Of a stretch of 64,000 nucleotides of DNA, positions 5,549-63,853 are shown piece by piece (position 1 is the first letter of the stretch; every line of letters begins with the position of its first letter). This stretch comes from Archaeoglobales archaeon (GTDB lineage: Archaea; Halobacteriota; Archaeoglobi; Archaeoglobales; Archaeoglobaceae), in the NCBI GenBank assembly GCA_030055525.1, contig JASFYJ010000001.1:26616-90615 (forward strand), written 5' to 3'. Made by a program: the position numbers and the translations under genes. A model generated the notes under the pieces. That model was not told the DNA's origin. It saw only the letters and a list, made by a program, of their open reading frames with translations, and made no database searches.

Positions 5549-8443
5549 TTACCTCAGGATTATTCTAGCATCCTCGCCCGAAACAACGTTAACCTTGCTC
5601 TGCACGAATCCACAATCTTCTATGGGTATAATTATATTATCCAAGGGTTCGCCCCTGTTGTTAAGGGCAACATACTGAATGAAAGAGTTGCTGTTGTCGT
5701 TTATTTCGTATTCGCCGTAGGGAGCATCATCCTTAACTTTAAGCCTAATCACGAGGTCTATGACTTCATCTTTCTGGATTGAGGTTATGTTAAGCCTTAT
5801 TTCCGTCTTTGTATCGCGTTCAATTATCTCGGGTTGTGAAACTGAGGAATTTAATTTGTTCGAAGTAGCAGTAACACCTAGAACCTTAAAAGGTGATAAA
5901 AATGAAACGTTGAGGCTTTCTACAACTGAGATATTAGTTGCGGCTATCTGGAAAGCGTTGAAAATTGTTCTGTAAGCTTCAACAAGTTCCTCGCTTGTAG
6001 TGGCGAAGAAGTAGCATGGCTTGTTGTTGTCTGGGCGTATAGAGGCGATATCTCTAAGGAGTTGCTGTCCATCCCCACTTATATCCGTGCTAAAGCCGAT
6101 TGTGCAGATTGAAACGTTAAATCCGTTTACTTTTACTGTATTGTTGTTCTTTATGTAATTCGCTATACATCGGGCTTGACCAAACGCACCGAGTGACGTT
6201 GGACATCCGTAATTACTTCCTTCGCTCACAACTTGATTGGCATCTCCATCTGTTAACAATATCATTAGAGGTCTTAACCCCTGAATACAGGTTGTGCAGT
6301 TGTTTCCAGATTCGTTCCAGATCGGATAAACTTTAGAACCCCAATACAACCCACCAGCAATGTTTGTAGCGCTAAGAGGTTTAAAGTTAATAATGCTTAC
6401 ATTAACTGCAGATTTATCATTGGTCATGTATTTCAGAACACTTGAAGACGCATTCACCACAACTCTTTGAGCGCTCGTTGAAAAATTGGTCAAACCTACA
6501 AAATCCTTTTGTCCCAGCATGCCATTGAACGTTGTTCCAGCAAGCTTTGCTGCGTCAATACGCATCACAAACACCGTTGCGTTAAAAGTCACTGAGTCCT
6601 TGGTTGTTGGCACAACAACGAACTTATAAGTTCCGGGGTTCGGGTATGGTATAAATGCGTCAGCGCTCATGTTAAAGTACTCTCTTGAAATATCCCTATT
6701 GTCCTGTGCCACATACCAAGCGGTAGAATTCCAGTATGCATATCGTGTGCAACCACTCCAAGACCCTAGTATGCACCATCTTATTACTGTCTTGTTATTG
6801 CCCTTCACCAGAAACTCCTTTGTGTTATCTGCCTTCACAAACCAGACGTTCAACTTGTTATCGTTAAAGCTATTATATCCACAAGTGGAAAAGTTATATC
6901 GCCAGTAGTAATTGCCCTCAGAAGGTATAAATTTCCAATTGCTCCAGATTCTTTCACTCCACTCTGGCAGATTCTGAACACCTACAACTGCCAAAAATCC
7001 ATAACTACCGCCAGAGGGCAACGGTGGTAATTCAAATTCGACTTCTTGTTTGTTCACATATTGATAAGTTTTGTTCAGAATCTCAGTATTCTGGTGTTTA
7101 ACAACGATTGTCAGGTTTATCTGCTCTGGAGCTCTTGCAACAACTTCGATCGTGTAATTTCCAGCGGGAGCATTGTTTTGTGAATAATATTTTCCAATTT
7201 TTCCTCCAGAATTATAATCGCCGCCTGAGTCAACTCCGTTAACGTAGAGTTTAACGAAAGATTCATCGTAGCCAACGTTATACCACGGACAATTCCCTGT
7301 CGCATTACTGCATGCTTTACACGCTGAATTTGAATACCAACTCGTAAGCCTATCGCTCGTATAAGCCCAGATCTCAAGTTTCCCTGAGGAGTTCAGCGTA
7401 ACTGTTTCCTTTATAACATTCGGATTTACTGTAAAACTGTAATTCTTAAAGATCGTTGGCAAGATCATGCTCCCTGAGACGTCGATGACATGCACAACGC
7501 TTAAATTCGTTGAATTTAGCAGGAAACCTCTACCTTCAATGCGAAGATTGACATCAAATACATCTCCGGGGGAAACAATCCTTGGCTCGATCCATTTCTT
7601 GCAAACCAGATATGGATTCGATTCTTCCGGTTTCAGAGAAACGAGAAGTTTATTTGCATCGCTTGCATTGCAGTGAGGTAAATCGACAATTTCAGCCCTG
7701 ATCCATGCGTAACATTCGTAATCGTTGCTTGTATCATTTCTTTTCACGCATTGATTTTTTACTTCATTTTCATCGATCAATTTTAGTGCTACTATCTTAT
7801 CGATATCTGAACCGGAAATAACACTACCGTTCCAGAGCGTTACGTTCCACCGTATGCTTTTTGTGATCTCATCTTTATTGACAAAGCTAACCTTTAATCC
7901 GAAGTTATCTTCAATAGCAACGCTGCTCTGAATAAACTCTATTCTTGGTTTTGGAATGAACGGGCACTCTATGGATTTTTCGTACTCCACCTTCGGTTTC
8001 TCTTCTTTCTTTTCAGCTTCTACCTGAAAACTTATAATTTCTCCTCCAGTTCCTACAGATATTACTCCTGATTTTGATATAAATTTCGCTAAACCCAAGC
8101 CACTAGCTGCAGAGTATTTTCCCCCCTCGACTAATATGTAAGCAACATCTCCCGTTTTATTTAGCTTTGCAGAATATCCCAGCTTGCCTATCGTCGATGG
8201 CATCTCTATTTTCGTGCTAATTGATCCGTTATCTGGAAGAATTAGGACGTAGTCTGTGTAGATTGCAGAAATCTGCGATGCGACATCTGCAAAGTTGTTC
8301 TCCACAACCCTTGAAAGCTGAACCTCGCTTAGAGTATCGTGAATCTGAAGACTCATCACAACTACAAAAACGCTCAGAATTCCCATCAGAATCAGATATT
8401 CCACAAGCAAAGATACCCCTTTATCAGCACCCATCCCCATCAC
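5549..8443 (-). CDS. pilin-like vWA (MIDAS) domain protein D, 964 aa, putative adhesin / TadG-like
   Basis: The N-terminus is GADKG|VSLLVEYLILMGILSVFVVVMSL. MIDAS DVSGSM lies at aa 321-326 (nt 7466-7483, verified by back-translation). SATNIAGGL lies at about aa 691-699 and ILLTDGDAN at aa 728-736. A hand count gives about 30 N-X-S/T sequons. Confidence 0.8.
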   Translation of the reverse strand: MMGMGADKGVSLLVEYLILMGILSVFVVVMSLQIHDTLSEVQLSRVVENNFADVASQISAIYTDYVLILPDNGSISTKIEMPSTIGKLGYSAKLNKTGDVAYILVEGGKYSAASGLGLAKFISKSGVISVGTGGEIISFQVEAEKKEEKPKVEYEKSIECPFIPKPRIEFIQSSVAIEDNFGLKVSFVNKDEITKSIRWNVTLWNGSVISGSDIDKIVALKLIDENEVKNQCVKRNDTSNDYECYAWIRAEIVDLPHCNASDANKLLVSLKPEESNPYLVCKKWIEPRIVSPGDVFDVNLRIEGRGFLLNSTNLSVVHVIDVSGSMILPTIFKNYSFTVNPNVIKETVTLNSSGKLEIWAYTSDRLTSWYSNSACKACSNATGNCPWYNVGYDESFVKLYVNGVDSGGDYNSGGKIGKYYSQNNAPAGNYTIEVVARAPEQINLTIVVKHQNTEILNKTYQYVNKQEVEFELPPLPSGGSYGFLAVVGVQNLPEWSERIWSNWKFIPSEGNYYWRYNFSTCGYNSFNDNKLNVWFVKADNTKEFLVKGNNKTVIRWCILGSWSGCTRYAYWNSTAWYVAQDNRDISREYFNMSADAFIPYPNPGTYKFVVVPTTKDSVTFNATVFVMRIDAAKLAGTTFNGMLGQKDFVGLTNFSTSAQRVVVNASSSVLKYMTNDKSAVNVSIINFKPLSATNIAGGLYWGSKVYPIWNESGNNCTTCIQGLRPLMILLTDGDANQVVSEGSNYGCPTSLGAFGQARCIANYIKNNNTVKVNGFNVSICTIGFSTDISGDGQQLLRDIASIRPDNNKPCYFFATTSEELVEAYRTIFNAFQIAATNISVVESLNVSFLSPFKVLGVTATSNKLNSSVSQPEIIERDTKTEIRLNITSIQKDEVIDLVIRLKVKDDAPYGEYEINDNSNSFIQYVALNNRGEPLDNIIIPIEDCGFVQSKVNVVSGEDARIILR

Positions 8444-29145: not shown

Positions 29146-29220
29146 CGGACCCGGCGGGATTTGAACCCGCGATCTACGGCTTAGAAGGCCGTCGCTCTGT
29201 CCTGGCTGAGCCACGGGCCC
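29146..29220 (-). tRNA. tRNA-Arg (anticodon TCT)
   Basis: Hand-folded cloverleaf: acceptor GGGCCCG/CGGGTCC, anticodon arm ACGGC-CTTCTAA-GCCGT, T arm GCGGG-TTCAAAT-CCCGC. No encoded CCA. Confidence 0.9.
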
Positions 29221-40508: not shown

Positions 40509-42529
40509 GTTGGTTGATTATAGCGGAGAAGGATGATGCTGCAAGAAGGATAGCCAGTATACTATTCAAAGATTTCAGAACTCTAAAAGAGGGAAAGATC
40601 AACTACTATTATTCGGAGAAAAATGATTCTTATGTGGTTGGGTTGAAGGGACATATAGTGGAGCTAGATTTTCCTAAAGAACTCAAAAATTGGTTGAAAA
40701 CACCGCTAAATGAACTTTTAAATGCTGAATTTGTGAAGAAAGTGAAAGAGAAGACGATATACAATTTGATTAAAAAACTTGCCGAAAAAGTCGATAGAGT
40801 CACAATAGCAACGGACTATGACAGAGAGGGAGAATTGATAGGGGTGGAAGCGCTAGAAATTTTAAAAAGTACCAATCCGAATATAAAAGTAGACAGAGCT
40901 AGATATAGTGCCATAACAAAGGAGGAAATAACCAAGGCTTTTGCAAAAACGACAAACGTTGACTTCAACCTCGCAAAAGCTGCGCTTGTGAGGCAAAAGA
41001 TAGATCTTGTATGGGGAGCCGCTTTAACCCGAATGATCTCTGTTCATTCCGGAAGGCTGGGTAAAGATTTTCTGAGTGTTGGAAGAGTCCAAACGCCAAC
41101 TCTGCGCATAATAGTTGAAAGGGAAGAAGAGATCAGAAACTTTAGACCTGAAAAGTATTACGAAATTTCGGCAAAATTTGAAAGTTTCGAAGCTAAGCAT
41201 CCGAAGAAATACAAGGAAAGACCGGAAGCTGAAAAAGTTTTCTCCAATATTGGAGATTTCGGAGTTGTAAAATTTTTTACGAGAAAAAGCATAGAAGAAG
41301 CTAAGCCGATCCCGTTTAATACAACAGAGTTTCTGAGGGAGGCTTCAAAGTTCATGAGTCCTTACAAAGCTATGCAGGTTGCAGAATTCTTATACATGAA
41401 CGGATACATCAGCTATCCAAGAACGGACAATACAGTTTATCCAAAATCTATCGATCTTTTAGGAATTGCAAGAAGCTTTCTAAACAGTCCCTTTGAAAAG
41501 GAAGCTAAGATCGTTTTATCGCAGGAAAAGATTGAAGCATCAAGTGGTAAAAAAGAAAGCAAGGACCACCCACCCATATACCCTACAGCCATCGCAACAA
41601 GAAAAGATTTAAAAGATGATGAATGGATCATCTATGAGCTCGTTGTTAGAAGATTTTTAGCTACCTTAGCTCCAAGAGCCGTCTGGGACATAAGGAGGGC
41701 TGAAATTGATTGCAATGGTGTGAACTTTATCGCGAATGGAAGAAAAATTATTAGTGCAGGTTGGAGAGAAATTTACATTTATTCAAAAGCTGAAGAAGTT
41801 GAGCTACCAATTCTTAAAGCAGGTCAAAAAATTAGGTTGATCGAAAAGAAACTTGAGGAGAAAAAGACGAAACCACCAGCGAGGTTTTCAGCTTCAGCTT
41901 TAATAAAGTTGATGGAAAATCTAGGCCTAGGAACAAAATCTACGAGACATGAAATTATAAAGAAGCTTGTAAGCAGAGGCTATATAAGCGGAAATCCATT
42001 TTCTCCAAGTGAAACAGCTTTTTCAGTGATAAGTGTCTTAAAAAAAGTTGCTGAAACAATAACATTGCCAGATATGACTGCAAAACTTGAAAAAGAGATG
42101 GACGAAGTTGCAGAAGGTAAGAAGAAGGAAGAAGAGGTATTTGAAGATTCTAAAAAAATGCTTGAGAGCATCCTATCTAAAATAGACTACTCTCAATTGG
42201 CTTCCGAGTTGAAAGATGGGATAAAAAGAGACAAGGTTGTAGGCAAATGTCCCGAATGTGGGGCAGATATAGTTGTAAGAAAATCAAAGAATAAAAAGAG
42301 GTTCTTAGGCTGCACGAGTTATCCTAAATGTAATTTTACTCTACCCCTTCCGCAAAAAGGTACAATAGTCTTAACGAAAAAGGTTTGTCAAAAGCATGCG
42401 ATAAGGGAAATTAAGATCAAAGACAAAAAAACTTGGAATCTTGGATGCCCTTACTGCAACTACATAGAGTGGAAGAAAGCTCAGAACTGTAGCCCGGAGA
42501 GTAAACTCAACTCTTCATCGAAAGCTTAG
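40499..42529 (+). CDS. topA: type IA DNA topoisomerase with C-terminal zinc ribbons
   Basis: Toprim ATDYDREGE, active-site GYISYPRTDN, and C-terminal CPECG...C and C..C ribbons. Confidence 0.9.
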
Positions 42530-42544
42530 CTCTCTCAGAGTTGA

Positions 42545-42706
42545 TGACCCTTTCCGGGCCATTGTCCCATGCCCGGGTTGCTCCGGAATCATAGTAAGGT
42601 CCGCTCCTCACTCATCCGAAGACCTATCGGCATGGTGTATCCCCGAACTTGCAGAGAGACTTCATCGCCCAGCTTAAGCCGCCTCAGCCTCCTCCCCATC
42701 GGGGAT
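42545..42706 (-). ncRNA. double-hairpin H/ACA box guide sRNA (plus a short 3' hairpin)
   Basis: Hairpin 1 has lower stem AUCCCCGA/UCGGGGAU followed directly by ACA (42636-42638). Hairpin 2 has lower stem CCAUGCC/GGCAUGG then G-ACA (42563-42565). Both have 7-bp upper stems, K-turns (tandem GA with a 3-nt bulge), and 15-16 nt from upper stem to ACA. A TATA box (TTTTATT, 42727-42733) sits at about -25. Confidence 0.8.
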
Positions 42707-42808
42707 ATGAATAGTGGTCTTGGAGCAATAAAACCCTTCTGTCAGAATTAATAAGATTATTTTCGAGAAAATCAAATTTTTTAAACTGTTTATATTTAGA
42801 TTACTACA

Positions 42809-55563: not shown

Positions 55564-55638
55564 AGCGGGGTGGGGTAGTCAGGTGATCCCGGCGGGCTCA
55601 TAACCCGCAGATCCGTGGTTCAAATCCACGCCCCGCTA
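55564..55638 (+). tRNA. initiator tRNA-Met (anticodon CAT)
   Basis: A1:U72 acceptor pair (AGCGGGG/CCCCGCU), discriminator A, three G:C pairs closing the anticodon loop (GCGGG-CUCAUAA-CCCGC), and T arm CGUGG-UUCAAAU-CCACG. Confidence 0.9.
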
Positions 55639-61420: not shown

Positions 61421-61942
61421 ATGGAAGATTGTCTGAAACTTTTATTTGAGAGGGTGTCGATAAGAAAGTTCAAAAGTTTGGACATCGAAGAAGAAAAGAT
61501 CAGAAAAATCCTTGAAGCAGGTAATGCCGCCCCATCTGCGGGTAATTTGCAGGCAAGAGATTTTATCGTTGTTAGAAGCGAGAAAAATAAGTCTGAGTTG
61601 GCTAAGGCTGCTTTAAACCAGATGTTTATATATGAGGCACCCGTTGTTGTGGTTGTGTGCGCAAACTATTCGAGAAGCATGCGTGTATATGGTAGTAGAG
61701 GGAAGCTTTACGCAGAGCAAGATGCCACAGCTGCTGTAGAAAATATACTACTGGCTGCAACAGCTTTAGGGTTTGGAGCTGTTTGGGTTGGGGCTTTTGA
61801 TGAGAAGAGAGTTTCTGAGATTTTAAAGTTACCGGAGAATGTTAGGCCGATGGCTATAATACCTATAGGCTACCCAGCCGAGAAGCCAGAAAGGAGAAGT
61901 AGGTATCCAATCGACTATCTAACTCATCATGAAAAATGGTGA
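61421..61942 (+). CDS. nitroreductase-family flavoprotein
   Basis: [15 protein letters not shown] and P.GYPA motifs. Length is 173 aa. Confidence 0.8.
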
Positions 61943-61979
61943 AAGAAAATTTTAATAGGTTCGTTGATAAAGCTATCTT

Positions 61980-62036
61980 GCCCACCCGCCATGCGTCCCC
62001 TGACCGAATGATGGGGATTCCACAGGGTGGGCTACA
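61980..62036 (+). ncRNA. single-hairpin H/ACA box guide sRNA
   Basis: Lower stem GCCCACCC/GGGUGGGC (8 bp) followed by U-ACA (62034-62036). Upper stem UCCCC/GGGGA is capped by a K-loop (U-GA-CCGAAU-GA-U). Pockets are GCCAUGCG and UUCCACA. The TATA box TTTTAATA (61950-61957) is at about -26, and a T-run follows. Confidence 0.75.
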
Positions 62037-62059
62037 GGTTTTAAAACACCATTTTTAAA

Positions 62060-63853
62060 TTAAAAAATCAGGTAAATTGCAAGATAAAAGAGCATGAAGA
62101 TCAGAATTATCAGTAGTGCTCCGCCAGTACTTATTTTGATTGTATTTTGGTTTTTAAAGTTAATTTTCGTATCTTTTGTGTTTAAAACCTGCATAGAGCC
62201 ATAATTTGCACCAAAAATGTGTTCGGGGTTTGTAAATGTCATCTTAATCTTCTTGGCCATATTACTGAACTTTCTGTCGATAAAACTCGCAAAATTCATT
62301 AGCGACCCCTCGCAGAAGCTAATGAATCTACTTCCTAGAACTCTGCCAAACCAGTCGAGGTCAAGAACGATCTTGTCTTCTCCCTCGAACTTGTTTTTGA
62401 ATAAAATGAACGCAAGTGTTATGAACATGAAGAACTCCAGCGTTTCAACAACCCTCAAAGGTTCGTATGGTTCAAATTCGACCGGATATGGTAGGATACC
62501 ATATAGTATATGGTATCCTGGATAGTTTCCGAAGAATATACAAAGGAAGGCCATTAAAGCCATTCCAACAAGCATATTTTTTGGCGGTTCTTTTGCCGTG
62601 AGTTCAATTTTTCTCTCTTTAAACCAAACATTCCACGGCAGTTTTAATGCTATGCAGGCAAAGGTACCTATCGTAGCGCCCTCAAGTAAAAACCATACTA
62701 TTGGCTGATGAAGTTCGGCAGAAGCATATACAGTCATAGTTTTGCTGACAAAACCGCTGAACAACGGTAAACCAGAAATTGATAGTGCTCCAACCATGTA
62801 TAAATAGAAAGTCATTGGCATATACTTGTAGAGGCCTCCAAGATCTGTTAACTTGCTTCTTCCAGTTATCTCGATTATAGCCCCCATCCCCATGAAAAGC
62901 AGAGCCTTGTAGAGTATATGGCAAAAAGCATGAGCTACAGCTCCATTCAAAGCGAGATAAGTACCCATTCCAACACCGCAAACCATGTAACCAACCTGTG
63001 AAACGATATGGTACGACAGAAGTCTCCTTCCATCGTTCTGGATCATTGCAAATACAACTCCATACATTGCCATTATAGCTCCAAGCCACATCAATACTTC
63101 TGCTCCAGGAAAAGCCCTTGCCAGCGTGTATACTGCACATTTCGTTGTGAAGGCAGTCATGTATACAGCTCCAGTAACTGTAGCCTCAGGATAAGCATCA
63201 GGCAGCCAAGCGTGCAATGGTGGAACAGCTGCGTTCAGCATGAAACCAATGAGCATCAAATAGTAAGGTATGCTATCAAAACCCTTACCGAGGTAACTTA
63301 AAAAGTTTGTAAATTCAGTGGAGCCGGTGTTAATTACATGCATAACTATTCCTGAAAGCAGGCAAGCCCCACCGAATATATGCCAAAGCAGATATCTAAA
63401 CCCGGCATCGTGAGCAGCTTTAGTACGCCTGAACCACACGAGAAAAAGAGAAGAGATAGCCATTGTTTCCCAAAAGATGTACAATGTAAAGAGATCTCCA
63501 GCGAAGGTTGCACCCAGTGTACTTCCAACGTAAAGCATCGCCGCAACATGCTCCCAATCTCTTTCCACATGCAAAGAATAGATATTCATGCATATTGCAG
63601 CTATTACAAAAACGTAAGCAAAAACCATACTTAATGCGTCGATTCTACCGAATACCAGTTCTTTCCCTAGCACAGAAACTTTCCAAGTTACAAAAGGTAA
63701 GCTTCCAAAGTAGCCGAATGATGTCATTAACAATATAAAGAAAGCTAAAACTGGAAGCAGGACGAAGATTGTTTTTTTAGCGGTTTTCCATCTAATTAAG
63801 GGAATCAGAAAAGCTCCAAAAATTATCAAAACTCCAGGATGCAGCCAAATCAT
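62060..63853 (-). CDS. Mrp/NuoL-M-N-family proton-conducting antiporter-like subunit (MrpD/MnhD-like)
   Basis: About 14 TM segments with a typical pattern (WLPDAYPEA...). A GGAGG RBS lies upstream. Confidence 0.75.
   Translation of the reverse strand: MIWLHPGVLIIFGAFLIPLIRWKTAKKTIFVLLPVLAFFILLMTSFGYFGSLPFVTWKVSVLGKELVFGRIDALSMVFAYVFVIAAICMNIYSLHVERDWEHVAAMLYVGSTLGATFAGDLFTLYIFWETMAISSLFLVWFRRTKAAHDAGFRYLLWHIFGGACLLSGIVMHVINTGSTEFTNFLSYLGKGFDSIPYYLMLIGFMLNAAVPPLHAWLPDAYPEATVTGAVYMTAFTTKCAVYTLARAFPGAEVLMWLGAIMAMYGVVFAMIQNDGRRLLSYHIVSQVGYMVCGVGMGTYLALNGAVAHAFCHILYKALLFMGMGAIIEITGRSKLTDLGGLYKYMPMTFYLYMVGALSISGLPLFSGFVSKTMTVYASAELHQPIVWFLLEGATIGTFACIALKLPWNVWFKERKIELTAKEPPKNMLVGMALMAFLCIFFGNYPGYHILYGILPYPVEFEPYEPLRVVETLEFFMFITLAFILFKNKFEGEDKIVLDLDWFGRVLGSRFISFCEGSLMNFASFIDRKFSNMAKKIKMTFTNPEHIFGANYGSMQVLNTKDTKINFKNQNTIKISTGGALLIILIFMLFYLAIYLIF

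Follow-up and report, generated by a model that had tools for sequence, protein, structure and literature searches.

A probable single-hairpin box H/ACA guide RNA gene between convergent nitroreductase and Mrp antiporter genes in Archaeoglobales

In the 64,000-nucleotide stretch of Archaeoglobales DNA analyzed here (the window), a nitroreductase gene converges on the final gene of an Mrp-type antiporter operon, with a spacer of 117 nt between them. Reading the window base by base, we find in this spacer a candidate element of 57 nt (61980-62036, + strand), which starts 38 nt past the nitroreductase stop codon and ends 23 nt from the Mrp stop codon. With a G+C content of 66%, against 18-38% in its flanks, it forms a G+C island in an A+T-rich spacer. 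The genes and the parts of the element are as follows.

61421-61942 (+): nitroreductase gene (PF00881)
61950-61957 (+): TATA-like element TTTTAATA, centered 26.5 nt upstream of G61980 and following a purine-rich stretch
61980-61987 (+): 5′ arm of the lower stem H1, GCCCACCC, forming 8 perfect pairs with 62025-62032
61988-61995 (+): 5′ strand of the pocket (5′ guide), GCCAUGC(G), GCCATGCG as DNA and GCCAUGCG as RNA, unpaired in the centroid fold
61996-62000 (+): 5′ arm of the upper stem H2, UCCCC (TCCCC as DNA), pairing with 62013-62017
62001-62012 (+): K-loop U-GA-CCGAAU-GA-U, TGACCGAATGAT as DNA, in which a U·U pair and two sheared pairs in tandem (G·A/A·G) carry a 6-nt loop
62013-62017 (+): 3′ arm of the upper stem H2, GGGGA, pairing with 61996-62000
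62018-62024 (+): 3′ guide (U)UCCACA, the pocket's 3′ strand, TTCCACA as DNA
62025-62032 (+): 3′ arm of the lower stem H1, GGGTGGGC as DNA and GGGUGGGC as RNA, pairing with 61980-61987
62034-62036 (+): ACA box, separated from the lower stem by one base, U62033
62037-62042 (+): GGUUUU, a short T-run, partly conserved (GG-CTT in the related contig L142)
62060-63853 (-): Mrp subunit D gene (Proton_antipo_M), last gene of the Mrp-type antiporter operon

A first-pass annotation had read a single-hairpin H/ACA sRNA on the + strand at 61980-62036, between the nitroreductase and an Mrp-like gene, and our reading agrees with it part by part, down to the GGTTTT that follows. The perfect 8-bp lower stem, of which seven pairs are G-C, and the 5-bp upper stem are both present, the latter being extendable by a G61995·U62018 pair. 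The K-loop that had been described as two GA dinucleotides flanked by U/U is also found and, together with its flanking bases, reads CUGA-N4-AUGAUG, a fuller L7Ae consensus. The TATA-like element indeed lies about 26 nt upstream; it may act as a promoter for an RNA whose 5′ end is presumed to be 61980, at the start of the lower-stem 5′ arm, and whose transcription likely ends at GGUUUU.

The + strand folds with a minimum free energy of -28.5 kcal/mol (z = -3.4), a value that none of 200 shuffled sequences reached, and the fold of the - strand is weaker (z = -2.0). Two closures of the pocket can be drawn. With U61996-A62017 as the closing pair, the internal loop measures 8/7 nt, the upper stem 5 bp and the distance to the ACA box 16 nt, as the first-pass annotation had it. 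If G61995·U62018 closes the pocket instead, the upper stem reaches 6 bp and the ACA distance becomes 15 rather than 16 nt, so that across both closures the loop strands are 7-8 and 6-7 nt long and the K-loop sits 5 or 6 pairs above the pocket. The stack between the pocket and the second G·A pair comprises 9 layers with G61995·U62018 and 8 without it, compared with 10 in productive folds.

These dimensions were compared with published rules for archaeal H/ACA RNAs. According to Muller et al. 2008 (PMC2377435), H1 has at least 7 bp (8 in the candidate), H2 at least 5 bp, with 6 bp in 14 of 15 functional interactions (5 in the candidate, or 6 with the G·U pair), the loop strands have 5-11 nt (7-8 and 6-7 nt), the apical loop 8-35 nt (12 nt), and the ACA box lies 14-15 nt from the target in active complexes (15 or 16 nt). 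Toffano-Nioche et al. 2015 (PMC4652768) give 7-9 bp for the lower stem (8 bp), 14-16 nt for the ACA distance (15 or 16 nt) and 8-11 layers for the stack from pocket to GA, and Czekay and Kothe 2021 (PMC7991803) state that 5-6 nt always separate the K-turn or K-loop from the pocket below it (5 or 6). All the anatomy rules compared fit the candidate except the 10-layer stack: nearly all productive folds have 10 layers (PMC4652768) and the candidate has 8 or 9, which counts against the guide reading, while Haloferax H/ACA motifs have stacks of 8-10 layers (PMC4652768/PMC2377435). The 5-bp/16-nt fold of the first-pass annotation lies at the edge of these rules and the 6-bp/15-nt register has the canonical values. 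The functional register is therefore most likely the one in which G61995·U62018 closes the pocket, with an H2 of 6 bp, an ACA distance of 15 nt and the guides 5′-GCCAUGC-3′ and 5′-UCCACA-3′.

To place the element among its relatives, we gathered loci carrying either neighboring gene. An identical nitroreductase protein is found on five contigs, with the same spacer in all of them. Of the 80 genome loci at which relatives of the nitroreductase are encoded, L006 alone (94% nitroreductase identity) has kept the element, and those with 79% identity or less have other genes downstream and no match to it. Identity of the Mrp relatives falls from 96% directly to 64%, and the loci at 64% are without the element; members of the Mrp protein cluster gave two more contigs, L141, which carries the L006 version, and L142. 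In all, the element is absent from about 60 other Archaeoglobi loci with the nitroreductase gene and from three with the Mrp gene, an absence that weighs against the guide reading. Among the loci searched, the candidate is thus found only in one narrow lineage.

The resulting alignment holds three distinct and very close versions: that of the window, that of L006/L141 and that of L142. Four of the 57 columns of the element vary, against 21 of the 60 columns of the flanking spacer (12/37 upstream and 9/23 downstream; Fisher P = 2e-4). The changes are confined to position 61987, which is C or U, and to 62004-62006 (CCG, CUG or GUC), which are free bases of the K-loop. Whichever base stands at 61987, it can pair with G62025 (C-G or U·G), though only on the + strand. 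Invariant are both pocket strands (0/8 columns varying on the 5′ side and 0/7 on the 3′ side), the ACA box, the upper stem, the U·U pair, the G·A/A·G pairs with their GA dinucleotides, and the UGA and AAUGAU of the K-loop. The TATA-like element is kept as TTTTAATA or ATTTAATA in a stretch of spacer where 12 of 37 columns vary. Conservation of the pocket and the ACA in relatives, which the first-pass annotation had named as a point on which its reading would stand or fall, is therefore seen in these three versions against a varying spacer. All 14 pairs are kept. No compensatory double change is visible among relatives this close, because only three very close versions were found, and this narrow set of orthologues is a further point against the guide reading. 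The pattern of substitutions indicates that the element is under purifying selection. The likely functional strand is the + strand: the U·G pair, the K-loop, the ACA box and the TATA-like element work there only, and the + strand has the better fold.

Two perfect inverted repeats surround the candidate, AAAAATGGTG/CACCATTTTT (61932-61941/62047-62056, 10 nt) and TATCTTGC/GCAAGATA (61974-61981/62079-62086, 8 nt). Neither is kept in L006 or L142, and both are for this reason taken as chance.

The covariance-model scan that had been suggested as a check of the candidate gave no support: no Rfam family matches the element at its gathering score, and no H/ACA family matches 61900-62120 even at E values up to 10, which again speaks against the guide reading. 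Rfam does include archaeal H/ACA families, and the control HgcG model scores 70.6 bits on 42483-42760 of the same window.

This second RNA served as our control. Both strands of the window were searched with an H/ACA descriptor (no fewer than 7 bp in the lower stem, an ACA 14-16 nt from the pocket-closing pair, a tandem G·A/A·G above the pocket at a height of 8-11 layers, and pocket strands of 5-11 and 5-8 nt), and four motifs were found, namely the candidate and three consecutive hairpins at 42488-42706 (-). The latter lie within the match to Rfam HgcG (Pab40), RF00064, at 42483-42760 (-) (70.6 bits, E = 3e-19). The score falls just short of the gathering threshold (77), so the HgcG-like RNA, which we take to be a member of the Afu-4/Pab40/Pf7 family, goes unreported in a default Rfam scan. 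It had been described as a double hairpin, but it consists of three hairpins, each with a K-turn and a terminal ACA, and its first stem is preceded, at about 24 nt, by TTTTATTG. Its style of promoter spacing and its 3′ end, ...GGGCUACAG, are shared with the candidate.

The pockets of the companion RNA find sites in 23S rRNA, one in helix 69 (GGGGUAACU-A-UGACCCU) and two in domain V (GGUUGU-UC-GCCUAUUAAA and GGGGCUUGCU-AC-CUCGAUGUCG). Compared with shuffled guides, two of the sites have P values of ~0.05-0.06, and the third is weaker (P 0.05-0.09). The H/ACA system, and with it guides of this kind, thus appears to be in use in this genome, and the target scan recovers plausible sites.

Among known RNAs, the candidate is closest in build to the single-hairpin guides Afu-190, Afu-46 and Pab19, which also have a lower stem, a pocket, a short upper stem capped by a K-loop, and an ACA directly 3′ (PMC4652768, PMC2377435). 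The Afu guides match the candidate in size and share its host class, Archaeoglobi (PMC4652768, PMC2377435). Their known targets are 16S 1004 (Afu-190), 23S 2639 (Afu-46) and 16S 1017 (Pab19). The guide sequences of the candidate differ; it is set apart from Afu-190 and Pab19 by target rather than by sequence alignment, and its likeness to Afu-46 rests on the published description and not on a direct comparison of sequences. HgcG/Pab40/Afu-4 (RF00064) belongs to the same RNP class, but has three K-turn motifs where the candidate has one K-loop motif, and it is conserved in Archaeoglobi, Thermococcales and Methanococcales with established 23S targets, whereas the candidate is lineage-restricted and without an Rfam match.

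Three other identities were considered and rejected. As an Afu-190/Pab19 guide, the candidate would act on 16S helix 34 (the region of E. coli U1052), and no bipartite pairing is found around the helix 34 uridine. Its 5′ guide GCCAUGC (61988-61994) is fully complementary to GCAUGGC in helix 34 (~1001-1007 of the L087 16S), but between the 3′ guide and GAGAGGUGG no more than 2 wobble pairs form, and there is no U at the target position; since the 3′ guide does not pair there, the candidate is not this guide. The complementarity of GCCAUGC to helix 34 could be due to chance or could be left over from an Afu-190-like ancestral guide. A box C/D sRNA was also considered, as the apical motif CUGA-N4-AUGAUG is the D′/C′ consensus of C′/D′ K-loops bound by L7Ae. 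However, box C/D sRNAs have terminal C and D boxes and a methylation-guide geometry, and the candidate has neither; its single CUGA/AUGAUG pair forms the apical K-loop, and terminal C (RUGAUGA) and D (CUGA) boxes are absent. Finally, as regards an intrinsic-terminator-like hairpin, the consensus terminator scan was silent on either strand.

Targets were sought in the rRNA of relatives. From 51 Archaeoglobales rRNA loci recognized by a 16S signature, 21 had both 16S and 23S (L087 being the Rfam-annotated one), and about 35 further 23S-derived sequences, used at U30 and around U289, were obtained through spurious ORFs inside Archaeoglobi 23S (147-aa query). The scan covers ~56 versions of 23S regions, from Archaeoglobales lineages other than that of the window; the ~35 ORF-derived ones come from other samples than the window's. 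The genes next to the rRNA operons differ between Archaeoglobales lineages. The window itself has two tRNA genes, at 29146-29220 (-) and 55564-55638 (+), whose G+C content of 64-68% is consistent with a hyperthermophile.

The target that the first-pass annotation had predicted, 5′-UGUGGAA-UN-CGCAUGGC-3′, was not borne out. It has no match in the window, the two tRNA genes included, at up to 3 mismatches and no counterpart in the 21 Archaeoglobales operons with 16S and 23S; its best site, 16S CCUGGAA-UC-CGUAGUAA, forms 5+4 bp, and 74-76% of shuffled guides score as well. Of the original interpretation, the H/ACA class thus finds support in the structural rules and in conservation, and the target does not. 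The predicted target presupposes an upper stem of 5 bp and an ACA 16 nt away, where published functional interactions have 6 bp and 14-15 nt (PMC2377435), and the prediction accordingly shifts, in the canonical register, to (U)GUGGA-UN-GCAUGGC.

In this register the best site is 23S U30 (numbering of the Rfam LSU model; E. coli U29), at the 5′ end of domain I, which reads GGUGGA-UG-GCU(U/C/G)GGC. The 3′ guide UCCAC is complementary over 5 bp to the invariant 23S GGUGGA at 24-29. The 5′ guide pairs 6 or 5 of 7 positions depending on the base at 23S position 35 (Rfam LSU model), which follows GGAUGGCU, is U, C or G in loci L087-L133 and is unpaired in the Rfam consensus. With the U variant, found in 8 of the 21 operons, 6/7 bp form around a U·U mismatch. 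The ~35 further 23S versions all read GGAUGGCU(U/C/G)GGC at this site, with no better-matching variant. The duplex energies of -6.8 and -7.3 kcal/mol are within the range of the HgcG motifs, and in a comparison with 2000 shuffled guides the site reaches a P of 0.012, uncorrected for the number of registers tried. Nowhere else in the 1.34 Mb examined is there a match with one mismatch or none. The mismatch in the 5′ duplex, and the restriction of the better U variant to 8/21 operons, speak against this target, and we propose U30 as the best candidate substrate only tentatively, on the strength of predicted pairing. To our knowledge, no pseudouridine is known at 23S U30, nor is this position known to be modified in any organism.

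A second site lies in a variable region near 23S U289 (UGUGGAG-UU-GCAGGAC), where the 3′ duplex would reach 7 bp (-8.3 kcal/mol). This 7-bp duplex is present in about half of the operons, and L101 alone combines 7+4 bp with a proper U-N spacer. In most operons no U stands beside the 3′ duplex, and the 5′ pairing is poor and out of register. The sequence UGUGGAA is found in none of the ~56 Archaeoglobales 23S versions of this region.

Taken together, the element very probably belongs to the single-hairpin box H/ACA sRNA class, judging by its anatomy. Overall, an independently transcribed gene for a single-hairpin H/ACA guide RNA working through the RNP mechanism is the best explanation and a likely one. 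The anatomy, the strand-specific conservation and, elsewhere in this genome, the sub-threshold Rfam match to a known H/ACA RNA are observed; for the candidate itself we infer transcription, protein binding, catalysis and a target. By analogy with the published architecture of archaeal H/ACA RNPs, L7Ae would bind the apical K-loop, and the ACA box and lower stem would be bound by Cbf5 (with Nop10 and Gar1). A substrate RNA would pair with both strands of the internal loop, leaving between the two duplexes an unpaired U-N whose U would be isomerized to pseudouridine.

That the element could instead be a hairpin formed by chance and without function has to be measured against how often the descriptor is matched at random. 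Applied loosely it finds 0.4-0.6 motifs, weak ones, in each block-shuffled 64-kb window, and about 16 weak matches in 1.28 Mb of related loci. The lower stem of the candidate, with 8 Watson-Crick and 7 G-C pairs, is of another quality: at least 8 Watson-Crick with at least 5 G-C pairs occurred in 0 of 142 composition-preserving shuffled windows. Adding the folding z of -3.4, the G+C island and the patterned conservation relative to the flanks (P = 2e-4), we regard chance as extremely improbable. A functional hairpin that is not a guide deserves more attention, either as an L7Ae-binding K-loop hairpin in the nitroreductase 3′ UTR or as one that separates or stabilizes convergent transcript ends. 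L7Ae binds K-turns outside guide RNAs too, the position is suggestive (38 nt past one stop codon and 23 nt from the other, between convergent genes), and a GC-rich hairpin followed by TTTT looks like a terminator. However, archaeal termination depends on T-runs, not hairpins, and the terminator scan gave no call. A plain hairpin also needs no invariant unpaired pocket or ACA, and is disfavored because the 15 unpaired pocket nucleotides and the ACA are invariant within a spacer that is 35% variable. Moreover, all the H/ACA distance rules except the 10-layer stack hold together in the one element, at a quality that shuffles never attain, and a conserved TATA-like box stands at the right spacing for an independent start. 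We therefore consider a role confined to the UTR or the transcript ends unlikely.

A genuine H/ACA RNA could also act on something other than 23S U30, such as a lineage-specific rRNA site (e.g., ~U289), a tRNA, a noncoding RNA or an mRNA, or the RNA may be an orphan without a catalytic target. The imperfect match at U30, with a P of only ~0.01, leaves room for this, as do the 7-bp 3′ duplex at U289 in about half of the operons (7+4 bp in L101) and the fact that the candidate is lineage-restricted while the U289 region of the rRNA varies between lineages; extra-ribosomal targets have been proposed for archaeal H/ACA RNAs (PMC4652768). On the other side, U289 mostly lacks a U beside the 3′ duplex and pairs out of register on the 5′ side, UGUGGAA occurs in 0 of the ~56 Archaeoglobales versions of that region, and no site with at most one mismatch lies outside rRNA in 1.34 Mb, a small sample of any genome. 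A substrate other than U30 is, in our estimate, a serious possibility that falls somewhat short of probable.

If the element is a guide RNA gene, it would be a probable further H/ACA guide of a known class, one without an Rfam family: an RNA gene unannotated in these MAGs and missed by the Rfam models, otherwise an ordinary member of its class. H/ACA guides are few in archaea (seven are reported for Pyrococcus and 3-4 for A. fulgidus), and pseudouridine sites show little conservation from one order to another (PMC2377435). A guide of one uncultured lineage, with a target outside the known sites, would be a data point on the turnover of guide repertoires and of rRNA modification. More speculatively, and with considerable doubt on our part, the candidate could be a recently evolved, lineage-restricted guide of a hot-spring Archaeoglobales clade, directed at 23S U30 or alternatively at a non-ribosomal RNA. 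The 5′ end of 23S rRNA, where U30 lies, is the region homologous to eukaryotic 5.8S. Were this so, either target would illustrate the emergence of new guide specificities in archaea that have only a handful of H/ACA RNAs.

One observation concerns the place that the candidate occupies. In an Archaeoglobaceae MAG (JAOAIW010000027.1, locus L140), the last Mrp gene is immediately followed by an orthologue of the HgcG-like sRNA, at 5790-5990 of the locus and on the strand opposite to that gene, and the guides of its middle hairpin are identical (GATAGGT/CAACCCG). The spot beside the last Mrp gene thus holds the HgcG-like RNA in L140 and the single-hairpin candidate in the window, which might be a coincidence or might reflect a preferred site of integration or retention.
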